Shown here: positions 2,849-64,000 of the stretch, one piece after another | Numbering within the stretch: the first letter of the stretch is position 1 | Layout: the number at the start of each line of letters is the position of its first letter | Source: Trichoplax sp. H2 | Taxonomy: Eukaryota | Direction: 5' to 3' | Length of the DNA stretch: 64,000 bases | Assembly: GCA_003344405.1 (NCBI GenBank) | Contig: NOWV01000011.1 | Location: 434,001-498,000 of the forward strand | Made by a program: the position numbers and the translations under genes | Notes under the pieces: model-generated | Told to the model about the DNA's origin: nothing | Databases searched by the model: none | Seen by the model: only the letters and a program-made list of their open reading frames with translations

Positions 2849-3319
2849 TTAAAATGTTAAATCCGAAATATTGACGTTATTGGGAGGATATTTAAGTAGT
2901 GAGCATAACTGCTTAAATCGACTTCTCAGCTTGGATAATTCTTCTGTTAAATGATGGATATGATTTTGTTGGAAGGTTTGATTATAATGTTGTAGCTGAG
3001 CTTGTAACGCTTGCAAGCATTTGGTGATTTTAATTTGTTTTGATTTTACACTATTGGAGTCTAGCGCATTATTCAACAGTACTGTCTTATCCGATTCAAT
3101 CATTGCTAGCCAAGTAGATACAAAACCTGAATAGAATCCAATCTCAGCGGCTAACTGTAAGCCTTTCTGACGCCCAATCAACATGCCATTCTGATATCCA
3201 ATCTCTCCACCTTTCTGGACACCAGCTAAATAAGCGTTCTCTTGTCTTTGATTTGCAGCTAGTGTTATTTCATCAAATAGGTCATCATTTTGTTGACTAT
3301 TAGCGTTAAAGGGGTCCAT
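2849..3319 (-). CDS. LTO1: LTO1/ORAOV1 (Yae1_N family; ABCE1 Fe-S maturation adaptor), intronless, 156 aa
   Basis: DDLFDEI N-terminus, GxxxG series (AGVQKGGEIGYQNGMLIGRQKGLQLAAEIGFYSGF...W), KLRSRFKQLCSLL and C-terminal LTF match the recalled ORAOV1/LTO1 consensus. Confidence 0.88.
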   Translation of the reverse strand: MDPFNANSQQNDDLFDEITLAANQRQENAYLAGVQKGGEIGYQNGMLIGRQKGLQLAAEIGFYSGFVSTWLAMIESDKTVLLNNALDSNSVKSKQIKITKCLQALQAQLQHYNQTFQQNHIHHLTEELSKLRSRFKQLCSLLKYPPNNVNISDLTF

Positions 3320-4893
3320 TGACGTTGATGCATGCAGGACGATCGCAAATGAATCCAGTAAAACTCGTTATTAAGCAATGATAGACAGGAGTGCCTTACC
3401 GAAAGGATATTTGTGGAGGTAAATTCTACTTTACAGATCGCGTTATTAGCAGTCGTCGACTTTGCTGCTATACCACCAACTAAAGTAATAGTTCAGTTAA
3501 AATGGCTGCTTCTGTTTCCGTACAAGCGTGTCTCTACTGCGCTACAGTATGGCGGCAAGGCTTTTATGGGAGAGTTCTCTATCCAGTATTGACTATATGG
3601 TGTTCTATGCAGGTATCTGAGTCCAGTACTGGCACTGTTGAAATCGAGCAGCTGCTGTACTACATTCTGTACCAGGGCGTCATTCCAGCTGTATGTCTAT
3701 AACCATCCACTCTTGTCTCGGAGTCATGGACAGGTGGACTACTAGAAGAAGAGCAACTCGAGTCCCTCCCTCAGACAGACGGACTTTTTTTTCTGATCAA
3801 ATAAGGATGCCAATATGGAAAAATGCTTTTACTTAGCATGATCTTCCGTGTCTGTTTTCGACATCACCGGTACTAATTTAATTAACATTGACAATCTTAT
3901 ATAGCTGTTTCCAAGCAGAACTTAGCAAAAGATTGGACATACTATAGCTTTACGTAGAAAAAATTATTAGCCCATTTAAAACCGATCGTCTGCATACTGA
4001 AGTACTGTCCTAACGAGGCGTTTGGGTAAAATAGTTTGACCAGATGAGGCTGAAAGTGTCTGTCTGTCCAAGCGTGATCAGTCCAGGTCTTCTTCTCCGT
4101 AGTCCATCAAAGGTGCTGCCAGGTTGGTTTTGTAAAAAAGTGCCTTGGAAGGCTTTCGGTGGCAGAGTAGAGCAAGATGACCAGGAAAGGACAAGCCGGA
4201 TGTTTTATTGCACTGAATAGGTGTTTTAGAAATCCCTAGTACGAATAGAGGGGGATATCCTTTGCTATCGCAGTCTGTAATTGAAAAGGAATAGGATCCC
4301 AATGCAATCCATTCCACGTACCTATTTGACTACAGCAACAACCACCTCTGTTGCTGTCCTTTTCCCCTTCAAGTTTGATTACAATAGGAGCAACGATGAA
4401 AGTTTCCTACCATACAGTATTACTTGACGGAATCTAGAAAGACATCGACACCAAAGGATCGAGTCTATTTCTTTGAAACCTTCTATTTTACACTCTGCAC
4501 TTCCAAACTGACTTCTAGTCTGTACAAGTCCCACGAAACGTACAGTACAAAGGGTGAAGATTGCAATTTGGGGAAAAGAAAGGAGTAACAACAAAAAAAA
4601 GAATGATAAAATATGGCACAGTGCATCAAAGCCATGGCACAATAATGTAGAATTTTTCATTCTTGTATCTGTCAAGCAATCATAAAATATGGCAGAGTGC
4701 ATCAAAGCCATGATATAATTTTGTCGAATTTTTCATTCTTGTATCGGTAAAGTCATACTGTCTTGTGGTTGTTAGAGTACTGTATGGGTAGTAAATTCGA
4801 CGATCGCCTTAACCCACTATGATGGCAAAAGAATAGAAAAAGCCAATTTCACCCCCCTCCCCTATGGGCTAGAGACGCTAGAACTACTGTAGG

Positions 4894-5303
4894 CTACAGT
4901 ACAGTACACTCTTTACAAACCCAATTGTCACCCCCTGAAAGTACAGTATGTACTGTACTGTAGCGAGTTTGGTTTGTACTGTACTGTACTGTACTGTACA
5001 GGTCTGAAATAAAACAAGGGGACTGTAAAAAAAACAAATTGGGATTTTACCTTGTACTGTAGCAAAATTTGCCTTTATTTAGTTATTATTCCGCAGGTGC
5101 TATATAAAACAGAAATTGAACTACGGATTCCAAATGTTCAACTAATACACTATCGTTTGAAATTACTTTTGACATGATTTGATCAATATTAAAGCATTTA
5201 CAGTACTTAATTAATAATCTGCAACGAAAAAGATCACGCTCTACTCTACTGTACTCAGGGGGTGACATTTGGTTTGTAAAGGGTCTACAGTACTGTACTG
5301 TAG
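4894..5303. mobile_element. MITE-like element with ~55-bp imperfect terminal inverted repeats (copy 1)
   Basis: Left arm ctacagtacagtac..ctttacaaacccaattgtcaccccctg(aa)agtacagta (4894-4948); right arm tactgtactcagggggtgacatttggtttgtaaag..gtactgtactgtag (5248-5303). No recognisable coding capacity and no clear TSD. Confidence 0.55.
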
Positions 5304-5379
5304 ACCAGGAAACGACTGTGGTGAAGCGACACAAACACGGTAGCGTGAGGTCCGTTCTGCTTGCGTCACGTGCTGTTGT

Positions 5380-5399
5380 NNNNNNNNNNNNNNNNNNNN
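5380..5399. other. Assembly gap (20 N)
   Basis: Run of N in the sequence. Confidence 1.
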
Positions 5400-5796
5400 A
5401 AGAATGATAAAATATGGCACAGTGCATCAAAGCCATGGCACAATAATGTAGAATTTTTCATTCTTGTATCTGTCAAGCAATCATAAAATATGGCAGAGTG
5501 CATCAAAGCCATGATATAATTTTGTCGAATTTTTCATTCTTGTATCGGTAAAGTCATACTGTCTTGTGGTTGTTAGAGTACTGTATGGGTGGTCAATTGG
5601 AATAGAAAAGGCTTCTTTCGCCATGATACAATTTTTCATTCTTGTATCGATAAAGTCATACTGTCTTGTGGTTGTTAGAGTACTGTATGGGTAGTAAATT
5701 CAACGATCGCATTAACCCACTATGATGGCAAAAGAATAGAAAAAGCAAATTTCACCCCCCTCCCCTATGGGCTAGAGACGCTAGAACTACTGTAGG

Positions 5797-6223
5797 CTAC
5801 AGTACAGTACATTCTTTACAAACCCAATTGTCACCCCCTGAAAGTACAGAGCGTGATCTTTTTCGTTGCAGATTATTAATTAAGTACTGTAAATGCTTTA
5901 ATATTGATCAAATCATGTAAAAAGTAATTTCAAACGATAGTGTATTAGTTGAAAATTTCGAATCCGTAGTTCAATTTCTGTTTTATATAGCACCTGCGGA
6001 ATAATAACTAAATAAAGGCAAATTTTTCTACAGTACAAGGTAAAATCCCAATTTGGTTTTTTACAGTCCCCTTATTTTATTTCAGACCTACAGTACAGTA
6101 CAGTACAGTACAGTACAAACCAAACTTGCTACAGTACAGTACATACACTGTACAGTACATGTACTCTACTGTACCCAGGGGGTGACATTTGGTTTGTAAA
6201 GGGTCTACAGTACTGTACTGTAG
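5797..6223. mobile_element. Same IR-bounded element (copy 2) with its internal segment inverted
   Basis: Same arms as copy 1; 5849-6146 is the reverse complement of 4946-5241 apart from a few substitutions and small indels. Confidence 0.55.
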
Positions 6224-6279
6224 ACCAGGAAACGACTGTGGTGAAGCGACACAAACACGGTAGCGTGAGGTCCGTTCTG

Positions 6280-6617
6280 CTTGCGTCACGTGCTGTTGTT
6301 GATGTTAGAGTTGGTGCCTGAAGCAGGATGATTGACTTTTCTTTTTGAGCATGCGCACTGCCATTTTCCCACTGGGCAGTTTTTTTCTTCTTTTCAGCGA
6401 GTCATCTGTACAGTAGACTGACTCCAATCACAACTCCAAGAAGATCCTAACGCCATTGCTTTTTTTTTTTGGTCATCCATGATGGATTTTTCTCCATTTC
6501 GCTAATGGTATCCATGAGTAGTAGCTATCCTAGACGGACTCTATAATACTTTTGTATATCTCGACAGTTTCCTGGACAATCGATTACAAAGATAGAATCC
6601 ATTTGATCGAGGTAACG
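6280..6617 (+). promoter_or_regulatory. Candidate KAT6 promoter and non-coding first exon
   Basis: GTCACGTG E-box (6285), NRF1-like GCATGCGCA (6349), donor-like GAG|GTAAC (6612). The KAT6 ATG exon has an acceptor at 10654, so an upstream non-coding exon is likely. Confidence 0.35.
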
Positions 6618-8323
6618 TTGAAGAAAAAGCCATTATCCATAAAGGATTGTTATTTCAATTGACTGCATCATTAGTCTTAAAGTTGTCTTTTTATTTTTGG
6701 TTATTTTTGGATCGTCGTTTATTCAACTCTACGTTGGAGTAATGTTGTTCTGTTGACATGCTTGCCTTGATTCATTGAGTCCATGCTAGGAAAAGACATC
6801 CATTGCTAGGAGTAAATGTAGAGTAAATCCTGTAGTATCGTACAATCGATGAAAAGACGAGATTGTAAATGGGGAGAGAAGATCCAGTTCAATGGCCATT
6901 GACCATCGAGTAAAGTGCCATGTCGACTGTCAAGTCCAATCACTCTAGTGATCAGTGGACTTAGTACAGTGCAATAGATCGGCCGTCTAGTGTAAAAGTA
7001 TCTTGAACTTTGATTGAAACCTTGTCTATTTTCAACCTTGTATCTTTTAGCCGTAGAAAGGAATAGTGCAGGTAATCACTCCAAAGCAGCCATCTTCAAT
7101 ATCCCAGGGTCATCAACCAGTTTGATCTATATCCAGTCATGGATACTCCTTGACGATTTTCTTACCTTGTCGAGTTGTAGGCATATAGGAAAGTATCATC
7201 GACGAGTATTGAAAGGGGGTGCAAGTGTTTCTCAATCTTGATCAACCACTTTGGACTATGAAATGGTCGATAGAATGTCAAGATTGTATAGTCGTTTACT
7301 CCTTACAACAAGGATAAAATTCGAGCTACATTACTTGATCATCTGCTTTAGCCTAGTTACGATAGTCTTTTTGATTCGTCATAGTCGTATCATTGCCAAC
7401 TAATCTGCCAATAGTCAGTGGACGCCTGCCTTCTTTTTTTACCGATCTTTTACACCTTGATAATGAACATCAACAACTTTCATGGGCTACATGACCCTAC
7501 TGCAAATAGCGTTACAAAGTCATGAATGAATAACTAGAATATATCTACACTTATCTAGTGTTGCAAGAAAAAAACTCAAGTTCATATCGTCACAAGTGTC
7601 GAGTCCCATCTTTGCTAGTTAAAAGGGCCCATTTATCTACAAAATGTCTTCATCATCGTATCAGATATGGTGTCGCCATATCCATCGATAGACAGACAAT
7701 AGTAAGCCATCAAGATACTGTGCTTGATACACTATTTCACTCGACATCAAGCGTTGTCCAAGTATTCCCTTTCCTAGGACAGTCATGATCAAACGTTTTC
7801 CTCTGGCAATAAATACCTATTCCACTTGTATAGAGACTAGGAAAAAAGAATACCCTTAGCTTTAGTTGAAAAACAACAATAATAGCTTGAAGATTTTGGA
7901 ACAAGATAAAGTAATACAAAACATCATTTTAATAAAATGCTTGATGAAAAATTGGCCTTCTCCGTCTACTGTTGTTATTGCCTTGTTGTTGTTGTTGTTG
8001 TTGTTAGTAATAGTGTCAATTGGCCTAGTTGTCTTTACAACACTCGATAGGTGATCCATTTTGCCAACTTTTCAATTCCAACCCTGTTAAATCTCATATT
8101 TCCTGTCGCTTGTTACGACTTGAAATCCCCTTTCTATCCTAAATAAAACTGTTGATGACTATCAGTAGCAAATAGAAAGCTGAAACTAGCTCCTCAAGTA
8201 CAGTTCTAGCTGATCGATCATCCCTTTATCAGCGGTAAACTAGGATAACTATGGATGGATGAAGAGGAATCCATCGATCGATAGATAGTATACTGCTACA
8301 GGGGAATGCTGTAGTAGTAGAAG

Positions 8324-8690
8324 CGTATTCACTTTCCGATAATTCAGTTCATGTTGAGAGAGAAGAAAAAACAGTCTTCCATCCTACAACAATTTATCAT
8401 TTCCTTCTTTCTATTCCATTGCATAGCAATGTCATAGGATCGCTATGGACTGAAGTAAAATTATAATTATTTTATCCTCAATTGAAATACCATACATAAC
8501 CTATATCCGTCGTGTATTGTACTGGGTATAGCAGAATCGTATTCACTTTTTGGATAGTTGAAAGTGAATGTTTAGCGAAAAATAATTGAAGATCCTACAA
8601 CAAATTTTTCATTTCCTTCTTTCTATTCGATTGTATAGCACTATGATCGGATCGCTATTTAACTGAGGTAGAATTATTATCATTATTATT
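8324..8690. repeat. Diverged tandem duplication, ~214-bp period
   Basis: cgtattcacttt...atcctacaacaa..tcatttccttctttctattc.attg.atagca...ggatcgctat...actga.gta.aattat occurs at 8324 and 8538. Confidence 0.75.
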
Positions 8691-10664
8691 ATTATTATGA
8701 TTATAATTTTATTCTCAATCGCAATGGAATAACACATCTGCATCCTGCCCAAGCTATAAACCAATCGACTCAGAATATTCCTTGCCCATCGTCATCCTTG
8801 ATTGCTAAAGAATAAATAGTGCACTTTTTTTTTTACAATCAAGAATTAATATCAGTTACGGTATTGGATTTTTATTTATACCTTGTTTATAAACTTGAGA
8901 AAGAAAATGATATATTAATCGTTTTACAATCAAGTCTGATAATCATACACCTAGAAAGGCGATTGTCCTCTTCATGTTAACACAATGTTTTATCATCGAT
9001 GGATAATAAAAGTGCTCCAAAAATGAAAATCATTAATGTAATGATTTTACATCTGTATGCACACTGTAGTGACTCGTTTGATAATTGAATATTTGCTGAT
9101 GACTTATAAATGATTTACAAGTTATTTTATTTTAGTACATGCAATAGATTATAGTAGATTGATTACCATAAAATCACTCTACTGACCCAATCCTAATCAG
9201 TATGATCCTTCTAGTACAGATTGTCTGACACTTCGCCATATACATACAATCGATTTTTTTTTACAATTTCTTACAGCACAAATCGTAATGTTATTATTCA
9301 ATGTTGATAATGAATTCTAATCAATCCAATAGACTCTAATTACGAAGACAAATTCATTATTTGTAATAAGGTAATTAAAATGATTTGACGATTGAGCATA
9401 TGGAAACGTATTCTAAATCAAGTGTTTTACATGATGGACGATTTGCGCTCGTTAAATGTGTACTAGATAAAGACGAGTGTTGGGTCAAAATTTGAGTAAT
9501 GCAATACTCTTGACATGATCATATGAGTCTTGTGCATTATACAATTATTGATTTTTTAAATTTTTTTTTATTCTATCTACTCGATTGCACTCTGTATACT
9601 CAGTCAATGTGCACACTGTAGAGCTTGGAACATGGTTGGATATATGAGCGAAATATCCTTGCATACAGTAATAATGGCTTTGATTTTTAGGATAGAAAGT
9701 TTCAACTGTCTTTCGTGAATTCACTACGCTGAAGACAGATACAGATCCTGTATAGGATTCAAAATTACATTCAATGAACATGAGATAATACCAAGATTAT
9801 ATCGCCATTGGATATCTACTCTAATTTATCTTCCGAATTGAAATGGATAACGCAGTATTAGTATTGAAGTCAGCTCTTTTAATTTTTGACTATCGTAGTA
9901 CTGTATTTGCATTTGCACCTCCCTTGTTGTTGGATGGATTATTACGCATATGATTGATATTATTATTATCATAAATGATGGGCACAAAGTGTCCGCGAGA
10001 TAATGTCAGCATTAAAATGATTAAAGGTAAACATAGCAAATTAAATGGACAACGGCAAGTCAAGTGATTAATATTTAATATTGCCATTTTAGAAAGGATT
10101 AATATCTCTCTCGACAGATTTGTTGAGGGATATCGCTTTTATTGAATAATAATACTTCATTATAGTAGTAGAATTAACAAATGCGATTTACAATAGGCTT
10201 AAATTGAAAACTAACCTTGAACACATGGACTATCAAAACTTTTATTTATTGATCAGAGCAATATCGAACTCGAACTGAATCTGATCACATTCAGTATTAA
10301 ATGGATATTGCAATACGTAACTCTTCCTTTCAAGATAAATCAAACTACATGCTGTTTTCTACCACATTAAATAATATCCAATCTCAATATTTCCAAACAA
10401 ATAATGCTTCAAATCTTAATAACTAGATATATATTTTTGACTATCATAGCTCTGTGTCCTTAAACGTCCTTTTTTTAATTTTGGTGACTTTATTTTATTC
10501 TTGCTTCCATTTTAAAATAGGACGATAAGACTTACGTATAAGAATAATAACATCTTATAATTATCTTTGCATTTCTTATGATATCATTTTCAATTGACTC
10601 AGTCTATTTTTAATTTTAACAAGTATTATATCGAATTGTATGCTTTCTTTCTAGTAAATCTTTA

Positions 10665-15216
<4,552 letters not shown>

Positions 15217-26700: not shown

Positions 26701-29700
26701 TTAAAACAACAGCACATTAATCAAAAGGTCATTTTTTATGTGAATCGTGGTCAGATAATATTGGCAAAAGGATATACGGACTATCTTTTACCCTGATCGT
26801 TTAGTAGAATTTCATTTACATAATCATATATTATTTTTAATAAGCTACTTAGTAACGCGTAGTCAATTAATTAATATTGTAGTAGTGTAATTACGTTAAT
26901 TGTTCGTTTTGTCATCGTTTTATACACTACTTTATGAATCCTTTTCTAATTCTTTACTCAGGTAGGGGTACAGTCATTCAGTTGTTCTCTTCCTTTTTTT
27001 TTTTGCCGTGACACGGTTTTTGCTATAGTCACGGCCGACTAGTTCAACCTAATTTCAGCGTAAACTGTTTTGAAATGTTCGATGATGGAATTATCTTACA
27101 ACGACTTATTTTAATTAATGAATAGAACGACGGTATAAGCTAGTTGTATAGATGATACGTATAAGATCTGAAAATCATTCAAATCATTAGTGTAAGAGAG
27201 CTCATTTAAAAATAATCATATCGGAATAGTAAAATAGGTGAGATAAATCAACCCATTTACTTGAAGTATGCTATTCACTTATTTTCAAGTCCAGTTTTTC
27301 TCATTTTGATCATGTCTAGAAGTCAGCAGGGTTAAAAATCAATTTTACAGTAAAATGTACGGGTAATGTCGCGGCCAAATTATCGTACGTATACCATGAT
27401 CTAAAATGAAAACTGCCATAGCAAAGTTATACGTATAACAAAACATTAATAACCAATACACACAGTCAATTTTAACTTCGATTAAATAAAATAATGACAT
27501 ACTATTTCTAAATAACCGAGTTTTCGCGCAGTTTACGCTTTCTATTCATTGTGTCATTTTAAAAATTAATGACTATATCTGTTGGTGCATGATGATAGAG
27601 GATACCGTAATCTATTTAGTAAGAAAAGATTTCCACCTAAATCGCTCAGATATTTCCTGAAGTTGTGGAGACGACAATCAACCTTTCGTTTTTAACTATA
27701 TATTCTACAAATTGTATTAGACCGATACTGCACTCAGGTAAAACTCCCTCAAGAGTAATATTTTCGATCAAGCCCCCTATATCGTGTACCTTTTTTTCTG
27801 GTAATCATGGGCAAACTACCGTATAAGTAACCATATGAATATTGTATACAAGTAGATCTAAGATGGAGATGCATTTTTTTAAATACTGTATCAACCCGGT
27901 ATATTTCGATCGCTAGCAACTACATCCCAAGTTTCGCAACGTAACTTAACGATAGCAATTTAATTATATTATTTTAATTATTGCTTATTGATTCATTATC
28001 ATCTATTTTAATTTTGTTTCATCTGAATAGTTTAATCTGTGATATTAGCTGAATGCCACGGTAGATTGAATATAGATTGTTTAGATTAAATAGTAACTGT
28101 AAAAATGATCATCAACCTAATTTTACTACTCTACTGTACAACATTCATGATACATTCGGTAAACACTCTTAAAAAAACTACAATAAATTCTCTTTACACA
28201 AAAATTAGCAAATAGCCTATTTGCTTATTTAGGGTAACGATAGAATACAGACATTGATAGAAAATTGAAGGAATTGGCATATCGACGGCATGTTGTTTTT
28301 CCTTTTAATTTATGATTGACTATGAAAACAAGATTGATTAATAGTTTATCTAATCGACATTAATCTGCTTACAGTTGTTTTCATCATCTATATAGATAAA
28401 AATAATCCATTATTTGACATATTAATAGCCAATTTTCATTACTTTAGGATGATATTACCCATCGTTTAAATGGTTTTACTTTATGTTCTCTATTGTCTAT
28501 TAATATTATTGGGTAAAAGATAATAACAACAATAATAAGAATAATAATAACCGAATTGACGTACTTACAGCTACGGAAGAAAAAAAAGAGATTGAACAGT
28601 TTTAATATAAATCCATTGACAAATAAGACAATAGTCGATTTTATTCAAGCATAAATTGTTAATTTATTTGGATTACAACAGTTTCTAAATTTGTGTTAAT
28701 TGACGTTGTTGTGTAAATTTGAAAACAATTAAACGAACGATGTTATCTCAATTGACGTTAGATAATATCGTGGCAATTAGGGAGATTCAAGGTTTTTAAT
28801 TAGGAATTATGCCGGTTAATTCTATCCTTATAGCTCCTCTCATATATAAGCGATTGACACTTAATTTCTCTTAGTAATTATGATAGTTAGTCATCCTCTG
28901 AAACTTTTCTGATCAGCCCCTTACCTGCAATATAGCACGATACGGTAACTTTTTCCCCTACAGAAAGATTCAATCTGGTTAGCACAATTAAATTCATTTG
29001 ATAAAAGATTTTCCTGAGAAGTTAGGAATGCAATTTTAGTCATAGGGACTGCACGTATTAAATTATAGTAATTTTCAGGTTGCTTTGTACTTAAATCATA
29101 ATTAATAATTATAATCCTGCGATTAAATTGAATAATTTTTTACTGTAATCATTTATGTCTGGATCTGTTTGCTTTCATCTATTAGATCGAACAACTATGG
29201 TAGAATCTTCCTACGATAACGAATCTATCCTGAGTAGATTACACGACACAGCTTCCATTAATAATAGGAAACGCCTAGAAAGAGAAGATTCCGATTCTGA
29301 AAAGCAAAAGCAGAAACGATTTCGTACTACATTTACTAATGGACAGTTAGAAGAACTAGAGAAAGCTTTTGCAATTACTCATTATCCGGATGTATTTACT
29401 CGAGAAGAAATTGCTAGTCGAGTTGATTTGACTGAAGCAAAAGTACAGGTTAGCAAGTAAAATAAATAATCTCTGTTAATAACCCGTTAATCAGTATGGT
29501 AATTATTTCTTTATTGCCTGTCAGCCATTAATTTGAATAGAGATTAGTATGGATTAAAAATATTAAATTGTTTTTTTACAAAAACACTTATAAATAGATT
29601 CGTAAATATCAAGGTTGATATCGTTGATAGTATTTGCTGATTATACAGTATTAAAATATAGTCGTTATTGCTTTGAAGCAATAACAAGAAAATAACTGAC

Positions 29701-34231: not shown

Positions 34232-36022
<1,791 letters not shown>

Positions 36023-36720
36023 GGGTCACTATTTGCAATGATATCGAGTACAGAGAGAGAGGGAGAGAGATCGATCCAAGGCAATTATAAATGACGTTGC
36101 CAATATGCAAAGATTTCTACCCCGATGCAATCAGAGTAGATCGTGGAGGATTCAAAAGTCACAAGGTAAGCGATAGGACGTGGAAAAAAAAATGGAGATT
36201 AATACCTTTTCGACGTTTCTACCAACCACCAATTCGATCTGTGTCTTCTTTAGTCACACACACACACAGCACTATACGATCAGGAAGAGAGTCTGGTATA
36301 AAGCTCAAGAAGGTTGTCACCATATAAGTATTAGTATAGTCGTGATCGACTCTTTCCAGTACCGTAGTAGCCAGTGTCAATCTAGGACGACCAGTGAGTT
36401 TGCGCGGTCGACTACTCTACGTTAAAGCCATACTGTACAGTACACTGAGTGGACAGTACTGTACACTGAGTGGATAGTACTGTACAGTACCATGGCGCTA
36501 AGGCCGCTGGCACTACAGTCAATATTGACAAACGTTGTGGCCAAGATAACCGGCAGACGTCAGACGACATGCGAGATCATCGTGCATGCATGGTTGACGT
36601 CTTTTCATACACACACTAGTAGTGGGTGACACTACAACTGGATTGGACGTGTCTTGTTCAGTACGGTACACTGACACGACTGACGTCATCTTGGTAGAGT
36701 ACACTGTACTGTAGTCGTCA
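36023..36720. promoter_or_regulatory. Candidate bidirectional promoter (NKAP / RasGAP)
   Basis: Head-to-head genes, locally raised GC, a GA tract, CRE TGACGTCA (~36681) and a + strand donor AAG|GTAAGC (~36166). Confidence 0.4.
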
Positions 36721-51400: not shown

Positions 51401-54400
51401 GTACCGATCTGCAATATTAGTACATCTACTACTGTATACTATAATATTATAATGTATTCCCTGTACAGGACAGCAGAGACCTCTTACTCGTATGCCAGAA
51501 TATTTTGAACAGTACTGTACGTGTAAGTCTGTGAGCTAAACATTACAGTACAGTAAGGTATGTAGTTCAATTGCTATAGTACTGCACTGTATGGACAGTA
51601 TGCTGCAAAACCAGGATATAATATAATAGTACAGCAATTATGCTACTGATTGTTTTCTTTCAAGGTAAAAAGCTAGCAGACATCATACTGCACTCAAGTC
51701 GGCGGACTGCTGGCGATACATCATGAATTCATGATTCATGATTAAATAATGTAATAATAATTATTAATGATAATACGGTACTGTTGCAGTGTTTTCTGAA
51801 TAGCATATACATACAGTACACTAAGTTCGGCTGGTATACAGTACTCAGTAGAGTAAAGTAATTAGTAAATACTCTGTATAATTGTACGTATACATATACT
51901 GTATAGTGTACTTTATGCTATACTCTATACCAGAGTCACGGAATAGGGTATTTAGTATTACTTACAACTCTTTGACAATTGTAACAGCAAAAATTATTTA
52001 AAAAACCGATACTTTTCATTCCATCGGTACAGTGGTCAACGACGTTGTATTGTAGTAAAACACTGACTTGGCTTCGACTCATGATAGCAGTAGCAAGCGA
52101 TGTGAGCTGACGAGCAGAGGCTAAATCCACAGCTGATACTGATACAGCAGTTGCACAGTGTAAAATGCACACCTGACGCTCCTCGTACTACAGTACAACG
52201 CAGTACTGTATTTATTATAATATTATTTGGGTTATTTCATCTCTATTGCACATACAGTACAGTAATAGTGATTTGGCTAGTTCGAACTTCTGCAGTTTTT
52301 ATGCAGTAGTAATTCATAACTTTGGGGAAAAAATAATATTACTACCGTATATGTATATTATATATGAATGGCGAATATTTAATGAATCATTACTGCTTTA
52401 CAAGATACAATGCTGTACTAGTATTCATGGGAGCTGATTGATACGTTTTGAATGCTCGCGATCTCGAGTCCGGATGATGCAATATAACCTACCATAACAT
52501 TTTATTTTGATGTTTTTTTATGTACAGTATATGCGCGCTTTTGTTCTTGTTTACCTATTGTGAACTGCTAAAAGAGTCCATCGATGAAAGAGTCTGGTCA
52601 ATTTCATTGTAATATCATTACTGTATGATTTTAATAATAGCGGGTAAACTCTACTGTACTTGTACAGTATGGTGTATAGTGTACGGTACTAGTCATAAAG
52701 GATATCTTGCAAGGTAAATGTATAGTAAGCACGTAGACTGCATTCTTTACTCGGGCAATCATCTTTATAATGAAAATATAACGTCATTTAATTTTAACCT
52801 TAGCATTTAGCGTTTAGTATTTACAGCAACGGTGAGAACTGCAGGGACCCTACTGTACTACTGTACTGTTTATTAGCCTGGTAGTCTCCTGACCGTTTCA
52901 AATATGAAACTGAAATTATCCGAATTTAAAATTAAAATTAAGGCTGCAATACAGTACTGGGTAACTTTATAGTGCAGTTTTGGTGTGAATTCAACGATAT
53001 GCATACATGGACAAGTAGTTTGGTCATTGATGGAGAGTGCTAATGTAAAAAACGCATTTGCTGTAAGTCTAAAATCCAACGACCTGACATGATGACACCA
53101 TTCGCTGTTTTCGGCAGCCATTGTCCTAGAATTGCCATGGAGATTTAGGAAGCCGAACCCAGTGGGAGGAGACTATAGACAAAGCGGCAGTCGTAGGAAA
53201 GGCCTGCCCCGCCTTTTTTTAATTAATGAATTTGAAAAACTTTTTCCTTTATTGTTATTTGCATCACAGTTCATCGTTGCTCAGTGAATTAATTCACACC
53301 GGATGTAGAGGAACAAAGAGAAATAGCGGTGCTATTGCAGTGCTACTGTACCAGTGTAGTACAGTGCTAACTAAAAACTTTTTACTGTACGATATTTGAA
53401 GTTTTGCTTTAGCGTCGTATGGACTGTGGACGTATGGATGCCTATTTTATGACAGTCTTCATCATTCTTGTTCTCAATTCTACAGTATAAGGTTCGCGAT
53501 ATGCTGTACGGTACTGTAGAATGAAGATGAAAATGTACTCTACAGTAATTTAGTAATGCACAGATCTGTATCGTTTTGAGGCAAGTTACTTAGTGTTATT
53601 GTCTGCTACACTACCGCAACGCGCGGCGATATGTACGACTTACGTATCTGGAAAATGGTTGATTAAAATATGCTATTTCTCTAAATTGCAAGCTCAATTC
53701 TTCATGCTTTCTTAACGACCATAATTTACTTTTATGCCAGCCCTATTAGAAATAGAAATATTTATAAGCAGTCTAGTGTGCAAGTTTTGTGTGATACTGT
53801 CATGAGCTACTAGATGTACTTCATTTGGTTGTCTATGATGCTGTAAATATTAACGTTAAGGCCTGGAGTTAGATGTCATAGCTGCATACACTGGTAGTGT
53901 CTCCAAAGCTTAATTTATCGATTTATGGACATATTGTATGACTTGGAGTACTGAATGAATGATAACGAATAGGTTTGGGAACTATCATTATTGTGGGGCT
54001 CCTAAAAACTGATAAAGTAATATAATGACTGACCATTGTCATGCCACGATTGGAGTCAGTTTGCGCTATCATTGATTGATTTAATTAAATTTCTGACATA
54101 AGTATGTGGTAAACTGTATGGCAAATCATATTATTAGGGATTTGTGATCTAGCAATGGTTACTATGATGATATTTTCTTTTTTAATCGACTTATGTGTTC
54201 ATGCTCTTTGATATCTGCTAGTTAAGATGTTGTAGCATAAGCAAGGTTTTAATCAACAGCAATGCCTGAGTTTAGTCATGATCTCCCGTCAAGTAGTTTT
54301 ACAAACAACATTACAATGATCAGTTAGCTTTGGTTGGTGTAATGTAGGTTACAAGGTGACGAGCTCGTAAATTTGATATGTAGCTTATAAGTAATTTGAA

Positions 54401-57234
54401 GCGATACTATAATAAGGAATACGAAAAGGCGATCAATCAACAACGCGTAGAGAGTTAAAACAATTATTATTATAACATTTCTATCATTTTCACCCTTATA
54501 TTTTAGTGAAGAAAATTGAGTAACAATTTTATCCTGAAATAAGCAAAGAAATATGGGTTAATTTAATTTACTGCATTTATTGAACTCCATTCTATTCCTT
54601 ATCATCTGTTTTACAGGTGCTGGATTTGAATGGATTGGTAACTTTGGATGGAAAAAGACTGTTGTTATTTTTATATAAGCATTTTATAAATGAGCCTCAT
54701 AAATGACTATTCTAACAGAAATCTATGAATCATTTTAGTGATGAATTGTTTTTATTAATTGGTCATTGTGATCATTTTATTTTATTATTTTTGCAATTTT
54801 TTAAAATAAGAAAGGATTTTTAGGTATCATCTAGTGGTACTGTTATGTACAGTGCTGTAAAGCCACAATATATATTCAGTAAATAATGTTGCTTGTCAAC
54901 GAATAATGCTTTAAGATTCAAATGGTACTTACAGAGTTCTGGACGATAACAGATTTGCATGCCATTAGAATGTAGAATCTATTTTAAGGATATTATATAT
55001 TGTTGGTAGTGCACCTTACTTCATGTAGCATTTAGCCTTTTATTTGATAGTTATTTTTAAGTTTAGGAAAACAGTTTTTAAACTTTTAGATAAAAATGAT
55101 GTTGTAGTGATGTAGAATCTGATGTGCGAATTTGAAACAAATTCACTACAGGCTAATTCGCGGCTGTTCATTTATTTATTTTACGATTTTCGAAGATTAC
55201 AATATGTACAGCGTACAGTACATAGATGGCAGAAAGTAGAAAGCCTGACTGTAGCAATCAATCCAGTGCGGTAACTGTTTCCTGCACATATGAACACAGA
55301 ATACAGCAGTGCATATAGTAAATTTGCATTTGCATGGCACCGCTAATCATGAAGATGCACTCCTCGATGAACTGTAACAAAGACGGGCTTCATTGTACAT
55401 TACAAGAAGTGCAGATTGCGAAAGTTAATTCCATTTCCATTCCGTACAGAACTTTTGTGCGCTAGACCTATATTGTACGGTACAGTATATAGTATACTAG
55501 TATATTTCTACAGTATAGACAGTTATGGTTAGGGACAGGGCTCTGAGGCACACTTGTACAGTAGTAACAGTGCAGTAATGCTTTAGCAGACGCATCGATC
55601 AGACGATTATTATTTTTATTATGGCATTGTTCCTTTTTTGTTGTATTTTTTAAAAGTTATTTACGATTCTAATTATCACGTATAAACGTTTAATGTACAA
55701 ATCATATTAACTTGGTAATTCCTGATAACTTCACATGCGCGTATCTGAATTATTTTAGATACTATATTAAATTATTATTTTCAATACATCGTCTTGGCAC
55801 TAGTGCTGTTCGTGATATGATTTAGCAGATCAACAAATTGGCAGTACATTTACACTTTTTTACAGTATTGAAATTAATTGACGTTGAATATTATTAACTG
55901 CAGTGTACAGTATTACGATATAACATGATTAATGTACAGTACTCATACAGTACAGTATATTGCAGTATATATACAGTACTGTAGTACAGTAGCTTGTAGA
56001 ATTGGAAATTCAACAATGTATGATTGTAGCTAATTGTACCCATGCTAAAAATGGAACTGTACATTGTGTACATTACTGTAAGCTATTTATTCTAGGTGGT
56101 TGAACATTTCGTTTTTAAGTCCTAAATCATAGATTGAATGTACTTATGAAGATTTCCTTATGCGTTTTAATAATTTCATTTTAATTTCTTGAACATTTTG
56201 GTTGGATCATTACAGTACAGTATTGTACTCAATATGTTTCAAAAGTCCTCCTTGGTGAAGCTAGCCCGCTCATATCTCGCCTAATGTACACTTTTGCAAG
56301 TTGTGTAGTGTGTTCAGTAATGGTGCACAGTGGCACGCGGTACTGGCATACTATTGTACTGTATGTTCTGGTAGTAGTGTATACAGTACAGTTGTATAAC
56401 AACATATCTGCTGAATCACATACTTTACACTGTACAGCAGTAAAGAATTGACTTCATTTATGAACTCACTGTACGAATGTACAGTACAATACACTGTAAA
56501 ATATTATCATGTTACAGTGAATGACCACAGCACTGTACTGTAGAAGTGAATCATGTAGTGTACAATACAGTACCGTACTGTGGTAGGAACACTACAGTAC
56601 ACTAGTGATGTAGCGGGTGAGCCTTACAGTAAGTAGTGTACGTACGTACTGTACTGCGATATTGTGATCATTGATTGATTCCTGCACCCAATTTGGATCT
56701 GTAGTTGTAGGTCCTCCAAATCATACAAACTACGTTCTACTTTTCAAAATGATCAATAAGATAGTTTGGAGAATGAATGTACAACGTACGTAATTTGGAT
56801 ATGCCGTTGTAAAATGGATGAATAAGCTGTCGTAGATGCAGTTGAAGTTGTAAAGGAGAAAAATGCAGACAATACAAGCAAGAGAAAAGAAAAAAGCATT
56901 TCACTCTGGGGGTGATTGATTGGGCAAAGGGGTACTCTTTACTGCTATTGTTGTAGGGTCATTAATAGTTAATGTGAAGATGTGTCAATCAACCCCCCGC
57001 CTGCATGTAAACAAGATTGCACCTGCAGGCAAAATTAATCATCTTGTCAATGAGATTCAATTTCCTCTGGGATCAGAATACCGACAGCTGACTGGCGTTG
57101 GCGGCGGTTGATTTGCCAAGCTGACAAGTGCATTACCCGCCTCCTCGACAATAAACACTTGTCTCGACTGTCATAATTACGGTAGTGACATGAGCAGTAC
57201 GAGTATCAGAAATACGCAACATTAGTTACCGTTA

Positions 57235-57995
57235 ACGTTGATTGGCTGGCGTGCTTGCTGATGGCCAATCAACGTGTCGCGTAATCATCCATCAGTACTA
57301 AGAAAATTACCTTACCGAAGGGGGAATTCACACGACGTCTTCAGGCGTAAGACCGTTAAATCCAAATAACTCAAGGCAGCAAAGCGCGATTTGCCGTATT
57401 CTATTTTCTTCTGTACTGTACAGTGTTGTACTGTACAATTGCGGACTGGCCAACGACTTGGTCAAGTAGTTTAAGAAGCTTACGGTACACCTCAATACAA
57501 CATACATCACCACCACCACTGGTAAACACTATTGGTACCGCGTGTTGCTGGAGCTGATACATTTTCCTTTTTTTGTCCAGTTTTTTTTTTTTTTACCATT
57601 CTCGGTAGTGGTTGTTATTCTTTCACTACCGCACACCCTCGCTCCAACTATATTAACAGCAAGGACAGAAGAAGAGAATTACCGTAAGGTAAGTAAAAGA
57701 CTACTTTGATGCAAATAAATTGACATTCAACAACGTTAGGCGGTAAAATTGTAATGATAGTCAAGATTGTAAAGGATTGGATAAATTACTTGTTGACAAT
57801 ATCGAAACGACGGAGTTTTACAATTTTTTGTTACCCCTTTTGAATTGTACGGTACTATACAGTACTGGCTTATTGAAACATTTCCTTTTTAACTCTTTCT
57901 TTCGTTACCTATTGATATTGATGGTGGCGGTTAATTTATACCGGCAGGAGGAAATTAGAAAGCGTAATCGTTTCATTTTACTTAACTTATCATAG
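57235..57995 (+). promoter_or_regulatory. SoxB1 proximal promoter and probable 5'UTR intron (57689-57995)
   Basis: Two inverted CCAAT boxes (57235-57275), TATA-like TATATTAA (~57649), consensus donor AAG|GTAAGT (57689) and acceptor ttatcatag (57995). Confidence 0.5.
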
Positions 57996-58153: not shown

Positions 58154-59116
<963 letters not shown>

Positions 59117-62100
59117 ATAATACGATCACGACAAGGGAGAGGAGGTGAAAGGAAGAATTTGTCAGTTGTATGACTTTGCGGTATTTCCAATTTTTGTTAT
59201 AGTTATACTCTTCTGGTCACAATCGAAATACTTATGAAAACGAATATTGTTACGATGCCATTGCTCTTCTTTTTTCACTTGCAATGCACGTCAATGACCC
59301 CCGTTAACTAACTACTGTACGATAGAATGATTTAGCGTGTGTGTTAATACACCAACCATTATCGTTGATTAAATTAAACTTGTACCAATGTTTTGAAATC
59401 AACTACGCTCAACGTATACTCTGGTAGTGATTTGATCTTCTTTTCCCATTCCTTTCTCTCTCGCTTGTAATGAATTCGCAAGCATTTTTGTAGTATTACC
59501 GTATAATGGTTATCTTCCATTTACCCACCCGTAGTCTCTAGAATATTCAGGAGTTCGGGTCACCGAGGAGACATTTTCTCCGCGAATTTTTTATGTATTG
59601 TACAGTACTTTGGTGTATGGACATTATACACGTACATCCATCATGGTGCTTTGTTGTGATTTTAACTGTAAGAATATTTTATCGTCCATAGTACAGCTAT
59701 AGTACTGTAGTCGATTTCTGTTGTAGGTGAGAGCCTAAGATCACTGAAGTGGTCTTTAGCTTTCTTTCGACTGTAAGTTGTTTCTTTTCCCACTGTACTT
59801 TTTATAAAAAACAATTGCCACTGGAAGGTACTTTTTAAAATAATTATAATTATTTCATACTTGTTAACTATTTCCCCGAACTTAGTTCTATTTGATCGGA
59901 TTTGGAAAATATGAGCTAGAAGAATACTTATTCAGTTTGTCTTTCCACTCTCTCCTATTCTGCCGAACGAACGATCTGATTGATAATATATTTGCTCCTA
60001 TTTGTTACTGCATTACTGTAAGGAGATGAAAAGTATCATTTGTTGTACATGTATACTGGAAATCAACTCTTGCTTGATTTCGTGTCTAAGTACCTAATTG
60101 ACGCTCTCCGTATTACACAAACTAAGTGTTATTTGTACAACAGCTTGCGGGATTGTTTCCTTTCCAAAAAGGGCTTGTTGTCTTGTGATATGTCATTTCT
60201 CTGAAAAATATTCCTATCAATTTTTGTTGTAGTACTGTCTTAAAATATTATTCTTTCTTTTCATGAACTTGTTTTTATTACCCATCGTCATCAACCTGTA
60301 AACTTAGACTACGTGAGTATAGTATATAATATTTATATACTAATGACGTATATAGTATTACTAGCAGACTGTATTGGTATTAATTTAATGTACATTCCTT
60401 CTAATTTATTTATTGCAAAACTTCTTTTAATATACATTTGACATACGTACATTTATTATAATGTAAAATTGGTCGAAAGATGTGTTTCTATTCCTCTACT
60501 TCCTTCAGCATCTTGATTTCGTGTAATGATTGATTTATATCAATGTGTGCAAATGCTTGAGAAATAATGTTGAAAGACAGAGATAGCCATTGCACTGCCA
60601 TCCAGACAATAGAAATTCTCTGTTATGCATGAGATAACAGAAAATGGAGGATTACACGTTCGACCAAACTTCGATCATTATCAACAAGAGAAATTGACAA
60701 CTTATCAATCGTCAAGCGATATATATTGGTGGTACCTATGCAGTTCGAGTGTAATACATTGAGAGAATAAGAATTTTTCTGGTAATAGCTAATGTCGATG
60801 TGAATTTTCATGACCTCTTTAAACTATTATTAAATAAACTGCTGTCAGTTCAGTATTCGCAATGACTATTCAGTAAAAAGTAATGCAGTAATGCAATCTC
60901 CATTAAACATATTTTATTATCTTGTATCTTGATTTTCTTGTTGTGAACATGCAGTGCTCGACTATAAACGTAACGTTTCATATCAAGTATCGTGCAGGTG
61001 CGCTGCTCTGGAATCATCCAAACATACACTACGACACAGCTCTATAAGCTTGAACAAAACTATTGATGAGTTCGAGTAGAATTGACAAGATTCATTTAGT
61101 AAATATATACTGAACTATAACGTATACTCATACAGTACTATACTATGCTAGACAGTCATGAGAAGGTATTTATTTATTTTTAAACAGTATCATCATCCAA
61201 TTATCTTGGTTGATAATGCTACTGCTTTAAACGATATACATACAGTACAGTGTAACTAGAACGTTTTAGCCTCTAAAAGTCGTCACTAACTCCACCAAGT
61301 TGTAGCGTACAAGGAAGTCACGACTTTAACCCTTTTAACTATTAAAACTACATATTGTATTGCTATTTTGAATGCTATTTGTTATCATATCTTCTCTTAA
61401 GTTCAATGTTTGTTTTGAGCGAATTTACTGGGCAATGTTGAGCACAGTGCTTCATCCTCTATCGTAACTACAGTTTGCAATAGTTTACACCTTGTTCACG
61501 TAACGTTGATGATATCTACTCCTATCGGGAATGTACCGATCTAAGAACGCCAGTTTCTCAATAAGATCGCATGAATACCTACATTGCTATACCATAACAT
61601 TGTAGTTATAGTACCAATAAAAAATGTTTTTATTTTAACCATGATGGGATACTGTACTGCATGCCTGTATTATGAATCTTTTGTGATAGAGGATAGAAAT
61701 CTGGTCACGACCGTAGTACGTTTTTATTGTTGTTCACCAAATTGATCCGTGTATGCCTTTCGGCGAAAGTAATCGAAATACTCTATAGTTTACAGTATAG
61801 TGGTAAAATTATTCTAACAACTTTTAAGCTCGTCGGAGTTGTAAGGTTCGATACCGTTGATTAATGACATTGCCATTAATATGTAGTGTACTTCTAATTT
61901 AATGGAGTAAAACAATATATACTATACAGTGAAGTAGCCATCAAAAAGAAAGAAAAAAGAAAGTCATACTGTACAGTACTAAACTGCATACCGTAACACA
62001 ATACATATTGTCTGTATGCTGTACACTGTACAATGCGACAGCAATCTTCTAAGTCCTAATTACCATACAGTACCATGCAATGCATACAGTAGTCTCTTTT

Positions 62101-64000
62101 CGATTACAATTGCTAACACTATATCGGTAATAAAAAGTCGCAAAAACGACCGTATTGACTTTTAACCCTGTATCTACAGTACACTGTACTGTAGTCTAAG
62201 AAAGGGGAAAAAAAGAAAAACTTTTTTCTTGGCTACTATGGCGTACTGAAGTTGGCGTTTTTGCAGAGAGGAATTTTTATACTTGTCTTTTATGAGCACT
62301 TTGCCAATCGTTAACAACGATGAACATTTCCCTTTTTTTCTCTCCCTCTTTGACTACAATAGCATAGAACGTGAAGTCACGGTAAAATACAACATTGCAT
62401 CAGTACAACACATAGTATAGCGCTGTACAGGACTGCAATGTCTACTGAATAGTGTCACCAAAAAAACGAAACCATTGTAGCAGCTGTTCACTTTTTGACC
62501 AAACATCACAAAAGGTCGGAGATGAAAATCTTTTCATTCGTAATTTCGACATCAGTGCTACACGCTGTTGGGTATAGACCTTAGTAAAGAATCAGTAATC
62601 ATAATATTTCATTTCTTTTGGCTAATTGAAACGGCACAGCCAACCTCAGTACTGTATACTCTCTTGAAAGAGTGCAAATTGTGCATGGTGCTGGATGTTG
62701 TTGACTAAAAATGAAAAATTCAATCCCTAGATTTACGCTATGTGGTATAAGTAAGATCTCAAAGCTAACTTTTTAATGATGCGACTTAGTAAGCGAAACA
62801 TCGGTCAATACGATCCGTGTCATAAGACTGGTTACAGCGCTATGCTACGATATATAATCATAAATAAAAATGCTATTGCATACTTTTTACCATGCTTTTA
62901 CTCCAGTTCTCTTCAACGACTCTGCATGACAAGTGTACGGTACTATGCTGTCGTGATACCATTTAAAGTCTATCGTGGAAATTATTGTAATTGCTATTTT
63001 CGATGCCGGCCGGCCAAATTCGAAACCAAGTGTGCAACATATAGACGAGTATGCACAGCGAATTTGAATACTATTGCACCCTGATTGCAATGGATTTATA
63101 CTGGTAATCAGGCCTCTAAAATAGACTGAATAATCTGTACAACTCGTTATTAATTCAGAAATAAATATCAAGAATACTATGTGCTCTACTGTCAAGCAGA
63201 ATACGCATACAACAGTATTACAACACTCAAAGCGCAATATCATTGCATGCGATATTAGCAAGCCAAAAATACAATAGTAGATAATTTATTAAAATTAAAA
63301 TTAATAAAATAAATGAAGGATAAAATGTTGAACACCAGGTCTTAATTAATAGCAACAACTTGAGCAAGAACATATAGTGCGCGTGGATAACGATAGAACG
63401 GCAAGATGAAGTAAAGCTAAATCATTGAATTCTATCTGGCCAAGAACAGCATTTACTGAATAATTATAATTACTTAATAATCACCAGTATTAAACACAAA
63501 ACAACATACGCCTGTAGAAAGTTAGAGATTACATTAATACAATTAACCAATTATTTATCTCTGGTTTTGATATTGCATCAAAATGAAGTACTATATGTAG
63601 CTGTTGTATTCAAAGAAAGAACATTAACGGTATATTGCTGCCGATAAACGTGATAATTGAAAAACAATCAGTTTGCTCTAAATTACTTTTGTTAAGAGGT
63701 GCCGATCTTAAACTGCTCAGTGACAGTAAAAGTGTGAAGTAGCTATAAAAATCCCATTAATTACATCTGTTAGGCTAGCTTGGCTGATAAAATAGTAACA
63801 TTATAACTTGTAACTTCTACGGAGTCACAGGAATCCACTTATAAAGCTGCTCTCAAGAGACTGAATCGACTGCACTTACTAGCTGTAAACTATCACGTTG
63901 TTGATCAGCCTACAGATATATAATTATAATTTGAAACTATTGAGTTCTTATTACATCATTTACATGTCCTTATTTCACCCCATATTTTATTTAGTTCAAT

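Follow-up and report, generated by a model that had tools for sequence, protein, structure and literature searches.

The stretch between positions 4599 and 6299 of the 64-kb window, which is the whole length of Trichoplax DNA analysed here, is probably a single-copy locus that appears twice through heterotype false duplication of two diverged alleles, and these alleles would differ by a fixed, non-switching micro-inversion of 296/298 nt. The two alleles of one animal line would differ by scattered SNPs, by a 102-nt tandem unit and by a true inversion of the block, and the assembler, unable to merge them, would have put one on each side of 20 N. Such an inability to merge two haplotypes would also account for the ends of the duplicates coinciding with the edges of the gap. 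The G+C content of the window is 33.2%, and that of the Trichoplax genome is reported as 32.7% (PMC6057997). The available text of the same paper describes clonal, highly heterozygous placozoan lines, a background that fits the presence of two diverged alleles in one assembly.

Two copies around the assembly gap

The 40 nt which precede the N gap are found again at 6260 and the 40 nt which follow it are found again at 4599. This recurrence indicates that 4599-5379 and 5400-6299 are two versions of one stretch, termed copy 1 and copy 2, which are laid out as follows:

4599-5379 (781 nt), no strand: copy 1, taken as allele 1, terminus of the left contig; defined by the gap recurrences, direct-repeat families D1-D3 and alignments
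5380-5399, no strand: N gap of 20 N, the sole N run in the 64-kb window, separating the overlapping contig ends
5400-6299 (900 nt), no strand: copy 2, taken as allele 2, beginning of the right contig; defined by the gap recurrences and alignments
about 5549-5650, no strand: extra 102-nt unit of tandem-repeat type, in copy 2 only, its exact placement being ambiguous by about 40 nt

Outside the flipped block the copies are 98-99% alike. Their left flanks differ by 4 mismatches in 344 aligned bases, in addition to the 102-nt unit that is extra in copy 2, and their right flanks differ by 1 mismatch in 138. The mismatches between the copies thus amount to 12 in total (5 in the flanks and 7 in the core), to which the 102-nt indel and the inversion are added. 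The left side of the element is adjoined by a 76-nt tandem repeat of about two copies (85-86% matches) at 4598-4752 and 5403-5553, and the 102-nt unit by which the alleles differ is part of the same repetitive patch.

Independent DNA is represented by 24 public runs with two coded organism labels, all of them found as Logan contigs, a form in which minor variants are dropped. Contigs from four runs of four studies (X1, X9, X6 and X7; contig totals of 95-101 Mb in three of the four) were aligned to 3800-7300, with 6082-6128 masked as repeat. An 8244-nt contig of X1 begins 43 nt inside the end of the copy-1 core, crosses the right junction of copy 1 and reaches 7300 and further, and a comparable contig of X6, which includes 64 nt of core, likewise passes over this junction and extends beyond 6299. 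This joint (5255>6176), which leads from the copy-1 junction into the unique flank beyond 6299, is found in two of the four runs and indicates that the unique right flank comes directly after copy 1. The 102-nt unit was seen in X1 (contig 5561-5680) and X9 (contigs 5561-5680 and 5663-5810), and its site is crossed without the unit by contigs of X6 (4599-4939) and X7 (4599-4843). The haplotype differences are thus seen as alternative contigs, with the unit in X1 and X9 and the copy-1-type junction in X1 and X6. Some parts of copy 2 have no cover among the contigs listed, namely 5321-5554 in each of the four runs and, in X6 and X7, also 5555-5671; they do not count as evidence, as duplicates align to copy 1.

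Contig depths, which are rough per-contig means of word depth and not copy numbers, are consistent with half depth on the alleles and full depth on shared sequence. In X1 the shared segment 4599-4777 has a contig depth of 62.3 compared with 51-59 for its neighbours, whereas allele-specific contigs of the same run are shallower, with 32.2 and 25.8 for the two branches of a bubble at 4514-4628 and 30.1 for the 102-nt unit. The contig carrying the copy-2 junction in X9 has a depth of 15.5 against about 30. Of the words sampled from 5400-8400, the RNA runs X4 and X16 contain fractions of 0.75 and 0.54, which says nothing on transcription.

A gap between duplicates, haplotype-specific differences and half depth are described as the mark of heterotype false duplication (Ko et al. 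2022, Genome Biol 23:205, PMC9516828). The locus resembles the cases in the available text of that paper in having near-identical copies split by a gap, haplotype-specific differences, allele pieces whose rough contig depths are consistent with about half, and a single-copy locus, but differs in that a small inversion is part of the unmergeable difference and in that the piece is non-coding and shorter than 1 kb. The gap itself probably hides little or no sequence. The possibility that copy 2 is a mis-scaffolded paralogous locus was rejected, as the copies match on either side past the element and the contigs have the depth of single-copy sequence.

Nearer to the LTO1-like gene, the segments 3800-3916 and 4034-4150 show a summed contig depth several-fold above that of their neighbours in all four runs, and a contig joint that skips 172 nt (3879>4052) occurs in X1, X6 and X7. 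These observations point to either another dispersed repeat or an indel polymorphism between that gene and the element.

The inverted block and its junctions

Within each copy the element consists of a core block between two arms, of which the right is an imperfect inverted copy of the left:

4894-4945, + strand: left arm of copy 1, with an ACAGT run, a unique arm of about 30 nt and an inner GTACA edge
4946-5241, + strand: core block of copy 1, 296 nt, containing (TGTAC)5 at 4975-4999 and TATATAAA at 5101-5108
5242-5300, - strand: right arm of copy 1, imperfect inverted copy of the left arm (inverted-repeat pairs I6 and I21)
5797-5848, + strand: left arm of copy 2, 1 base off copy 1
5849-6146, - strand: core block of copy 2, 298 nt, reverse complement of 4946-5241, with (TACAG)5.8 at 6089-6117
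6147-6162, no strand: junction sequence of copy 2, 16 ACAGT-like nt between block and right arm, in place of a single T in copy 1
6163-6220, - strand: right arm of copy 2, 1 base off copy 1, at 6175

The initial annotation had described a core of about 296 bp that lies flipped between inverted arms in the copies around the N gap, and this was reproduced by alignment: 4946-5241 aligns with the reverse complement of 5849-6146 with 288 matches, 7 mismatches and 2 gap events, and the direct-orientation alignment of the same two segments gives no match. Arms on the same side differ between the copies by a single base each (4909/5812 on the left and 5254/6175 on the right), as against 4-7 mismatches and 4 gap events between left and right arms; the arm 4894-4945 and the reverse complement of 5242-5300, for example, share 45 matches with 4 mismatches and 4 gap events. 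That each arm differs by only one base between the copies implies that the arms stayed put and that the core alone was flipped. Every base which distinguishes the left from the right arm keeps its place in both copies and none has been exchanged. The same annotation had placed the breakpoints at the inner edge of arms that keep their diagnostic bases, and this description stands as well. The arm pattern is found twice, with 0.00 occurrences expected from 100 shuffles, and when the DNA is folded as a single strand, the two arms form a long stem (z = -7.2 and -6.2).

The ends of the block are conserved to the base in both copies. The left junction is exact in each, with the GTACA arm end followed by the block, and the right junction consists of 1 nt (T) in copy 1 compared with 16 nt in copy 2, a length difference of 15 nt. 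Pentanucleotide runs of ACAGT type occur in opposite orientations at the outer and inner edges of the arms and at the ends of the block, whose interior carries a further run of 25-29 nt. The divergence of the core (7/295) is not significantly higher than that of the flanks (5/482; Fisher p = 0.23), so that the flip cannot be dated, and a higher core divergence was rejected as a sign of its age.

The copy-2 right junction is found in one of the four runs, where a contig of X9 aligned to 6129-6244 has no differences from copy 2. Its aligned part takes in the final 18 nt of the flipped block and runs through the 16 additional nt and the right arm, with the C at 6175, into 22 nt of unique flank. 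The 18 aligned bases on its core side are ACAGT-like, and its first 32 letters are unplaced, the alignment beginning at 6129 because 6082-6128 was masked. This contig speaks clearly against a copy-1 junction in that allele, yet falls short of full proof of the flip. A contig of X6 over 5900-6018 agrees with the copy-2 core at all four SNPs of that segment and has no differences from it, which indicates that the copy-2 core haplotype exists in nature. In X6 these copy-2-type SNPs are found alongside a copy-1-type junction, the sole junction seen there, and core SNP type and orientation are thus not simply coupled. This pattern is most simply read as a flip on a copy-2-type background, later than the split of that lineage, and repeated flipping is a less likely cause. 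Among the contigs listed for the four runs, none extends from unambiguous core sequence across either junction of the flipped allele. None of those listed crosses 5848|5849, and no contig with the copy-2 core SNPs was seen in X1 although the 102-nt unit is present there, neither of which is taken as absence. Independent DNA thus contains the copy-1 junction and, in part, the copy-2 junction, and the flip is very probably real in vivo.

Origin of the inversion

The element lies between two divergent genes:

2849-3319, - strand: LTO1/Yae1-like gene, a single ORF of 156 aa, start codon about 1.6 kb from the element
10620-14048, + strand: first coding exons of a KAT6-type acetyltransferase gene, with matches to SAMD1_WH (E 2e-24), linker histone (E 5e-8) and MOZ_SAS (E 2e-13)

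The first KAT6 coding exon, near 10.6 kb, is about 4.4 kb from the element, and its SAMD1_WH, linker-histone and MOZ_SAS matches bear out the earlier identification of this gene. The identification of the other neighbour as LTO1 draws on a weak Yae1_N match below the cut-off (E 0.086) and on a relative with 61% identity which bears PF09811. The TATA motif TATATAAA lies at 5101 on the + strand and at 5982-5989 on the - strand and thus points in opposite ways in the two copies, as had been annotated; it occurs 10 times in 64 kb, and a promoter function of the motif is not supported. None of the 53 ORFs of at least 75 aa in the 64-kb window matches a recombinase, integrase or transposase. To the right of the element, at 6280-6420, lies a G+C-richer patch with CACGTG and a GCATGCGCA motif, a candidate promoter or 5' non-coding exon of KAT6, whose first coding exon lies about 4 kb further on. 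Other coding features of the window include a homeodomain exon at 29149-29457 (+, E 3e-14), an ORF with an NKAP C-terminal domain at 34556-35194 (-, E 4e-38) and a SOX-type HMG-box ORF with a SOXp domain at 58154-59113 (+, E 7e-28).

Three kinds of known system are reminiscent of this arrangement. In human recurrent inversions of the non-allelic homologous recombination (NAHR) type, a segment bounded by inverted repeats is present in both orientations in a population or a diploid. The Trichoplax locus shares the bounding inverted repeats and the presence of both orientations, but its arms are only about 50-60 nt long and imperfect, its breakpoints are at the inner edges and one of its junctions has a filler or deletion. 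Short inversions that arise by template switching in association with hairpins, mostly of tens of bases, are said to have been described by Loytynoja and Goldman in 2017; like these, the locus has nearby inverted sequences that form hairpins, microhomology at the breakpoints and small changes at the junctions, whereas its block is about 296 nt long and its 16 extra nt are without a demonstrated template. Site-specific invertible switches are represented by fimS and Hin/Gin in bacteria and by the FLP system of the yeast 2-micron plasmid. They resemble the element in having a promoter-like core between inverted repeats and arms that remain fixed while the core flips, and differ from it in that here no recombinase was found within the 64-kb window and the junctions are non-reciprocal. 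Site-specific invertible DNA switches are not known in animals.

It is unlikely that the flipped orientation of copy 2 is an artefact, such as a rearranged bacterial clone or a consensus error, imposed on a real second allele with the 102-nt unit and SNPs. Inserts prone to form hairpins can be unstable during cloning, the element folds as a strong hairpin (z = -7.2 and -6.2), and among the contigs listed none bridges a copy-2 junction from unique core sequence, all of which are in keeping with such an origin. Against this, the X9 contig 6129-6244 has the right arm after the same 34 nt as copy 2 and not after the copy-1 core end, the left junction is exact to the base with conserved block ends, and an inversion of 296 nt would fit inside a single long read, so that read mis-joining is not required. 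A true tandem, in which the genome would hold two copies of the 0.8-0.9 kb segment with one core flipped, is what the assembly reads as and is nevertheless extremely improbable, because contigs of X1 and X6 run unbranched from the copy-1 junction over 124 shared nt beyond 6299, the shared segments are at single-copy contig depth (on rough figures) and the boundaries of the duplicates match the edges of the N gap exactly.

How the inversion arose is a separate matter. NAHR between inverted repeats is a classical source of inversion polymorphisms, and the inverted arms on both sides of the block would have allowed homologous crossing-over to produce what would otherwise be the same fixed allelic polymorphism. 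The arms, however, measure only 52 and 59 nt and match imperfectly (45 matches, 4 gap events), no arm-diagnostic base has been exchanged, so that a crossover would be limited to the innermost 5-6 nt, and one junction differs by 15 nt; an origin by this route is quite unlikely. The earlier proposal of an allelic micro-inversion from template switching or recombination mediated by the inverted repeats is upheld as far as two alleles of one locus are concerned, given the gap, the haplotype-type differences and the joint in X1 and X6; of its two mechanisms, template switching is the better fit to the breakpoints than a crossover in the arms. The annotation had also entertained a recurrently flipping, promoter-proximal switch, with a TATA-bearing core that is aimed at either of the two divergent genes. 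Such a switch would be in line with the different orientations of TATATAAA in the two copies, with the copy-2-type core SNPs next to a copy-1-type junction in X6, which more than one flip could explain, and with the reported link of ACAGT arrays to gene-upstream regions (PMC2871265). It is highly improbable and the proposal was not sustained, as the junctions are not reciprocal (16 nt as against 1 nt on the right, a 15-nt difference), recombinase or transposase matches are found for 0 of the 53 ORFs of at least 75 aa in the 64-kb window, the window has 10 copies of TATATAAA, the start codons closest to the element are about 1.6 kb and about 4.4 kb away, and the X6 pattern is simpler as a flip on a copy-2-type background. 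A broader form of the idea, in which inverted ACAGT arrays and short arms flip the cassette repeatedly, across lineages or somatically in the clonal animal, draws on a single hint, the X6 pattern of copy-2-type core SNPs with a copy-1-type junction, and is very unlikely; equally so is its corollary that each flip re-orients a TATA-bearing dispersed core between two divergent housekeeping genes.

For the fixed inversion between two alleles, which is the reading preferred here, it is proposed that the block lay between imperfect inverted arms of about 52 and 59 nt which, when single-stranded, would pair as a long stem, and that one past event at the base of this hairpin or cruciform flipped the block. 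The event may have been a template switch during replication or the rejoining of two breaks at GTAC microhomology, and would have spared the arms and gained or lost 15 nt at one junction. The position of the breakpoints at the inner arm edges and the lack of any exchanged arm base fit microhomology rejoining or template switching better than crossing-over in the arms, and the junction anatomy together with the hairpin potential makes homologous exchange less likely than a single event of break-and-rejoin or template switching at the base of the stem. The non-reciprocal junctions argue against a site-specific switch, which would leave reciprocal ones. Since that event the flip would have persisted as a fixed structural polymorphism between haplotypes and not as a working switch. 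A regulatory role for the flip is unsupported, and it would appear to have none.

ACAGT repeats, the dispersed core and wider significance

Among the microsatellites of Trichoplax adhaerens, ACAGT is the principal one (Wang et al. 2010, Biol Direct 5:18, PMC2871265), and such motifs are reported upstream of genes, 54% of them within 1 kb and 85% within 5 kb. The arm edges and the 25-29-nt core run of the element are likewise ACAGT/ACTGT repeats upstream of genes, but the available text of that paper covers abundance and position and not pairs of inverted arrays as breakpoints of inversions (PMC2871265). The window contains 30 ACAGT/ACTGT runs of at least 10 nt. Such runs cluster in intergenic patches (4540-6220, 36435-36712, 51544-52868, 55213-57436 and 61241-62192), which include regions upstream of the NKAP-like ORF and of the SOX ORF, and this fits the published link to gene-upstream regions.

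The core of the element is dispersed. Distinct contigs with variants at core positions 5928 and 5972 number 3-5 per run in X1, X9, X6 and X7, which is more than two alleles can give and implies that the core has further copies in the genome; contig evidence inside the element is blurred by these copies. No other copy of the element is present within the 64-kb window. As a small non-coding unit of about 410 nt with terminal inverted arms and a core with extra genome copies, the element is similar to a MITE or foldback element, and the ORFs overlapping it gave no match to a Pfam family. No target-site duplication was found, no direct repeat abutting the arms on reading, and the outer ends merge into ACAGT runs which blur the boundary. 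Transposable elements are reported to make up 0.13% of the Trichoplax genome, with a single MITE family of about 20 copies (PMC2871265), and neither a MITE sequence nor the arm motif is contained in the six supplements of that paper, nor a MITE sequence in its available text.

Contigs of X1 and X6 also join 5813 to 6205 with a single G between them, the sides of the joint being ACAGT-like, and in X6 the joining contig has a depth of 46 compared with a baseline of about 32. Either an empty form of the locus, lacking all 391 nt of the unit, or some unrelated ACAGT locus could account for this joint. Two further sets of matches were rejected as chance. Four metagenome loci that match the arm motif have 54-63% G+C and match the pattern alone, and three matches to Rfam mir-4703 on 3400-7400 reach 24-29 bits against a gathering score of 88 and fall on ACAGT palindromes.

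The inversion is most likely a fresh example of kinds of event that are already known. Its first consequence is for the assembly, in which the apparent tandem repeat with a flipped core is a duplication of two alleles and the locus should be read as single-copy. In biological terms the locus shows that the haplotypes of a clonally propagated, highly heterozygous animal differ in a small structural feature, whose breakpoints fall within inverted runs of ACAGT, the microsatellite that is crowded around promoters in the Trichoplax genome. If many pairs of arrays were flipped in this way, for which one locus is insufficient, the ACAGT repeat, so far without an assigned function, would have either a mutational cost or a role, and if recurrent flipping were general, the promoters of placozoans would have hot spots of micro-inversion at inverted ACAGT arrays.
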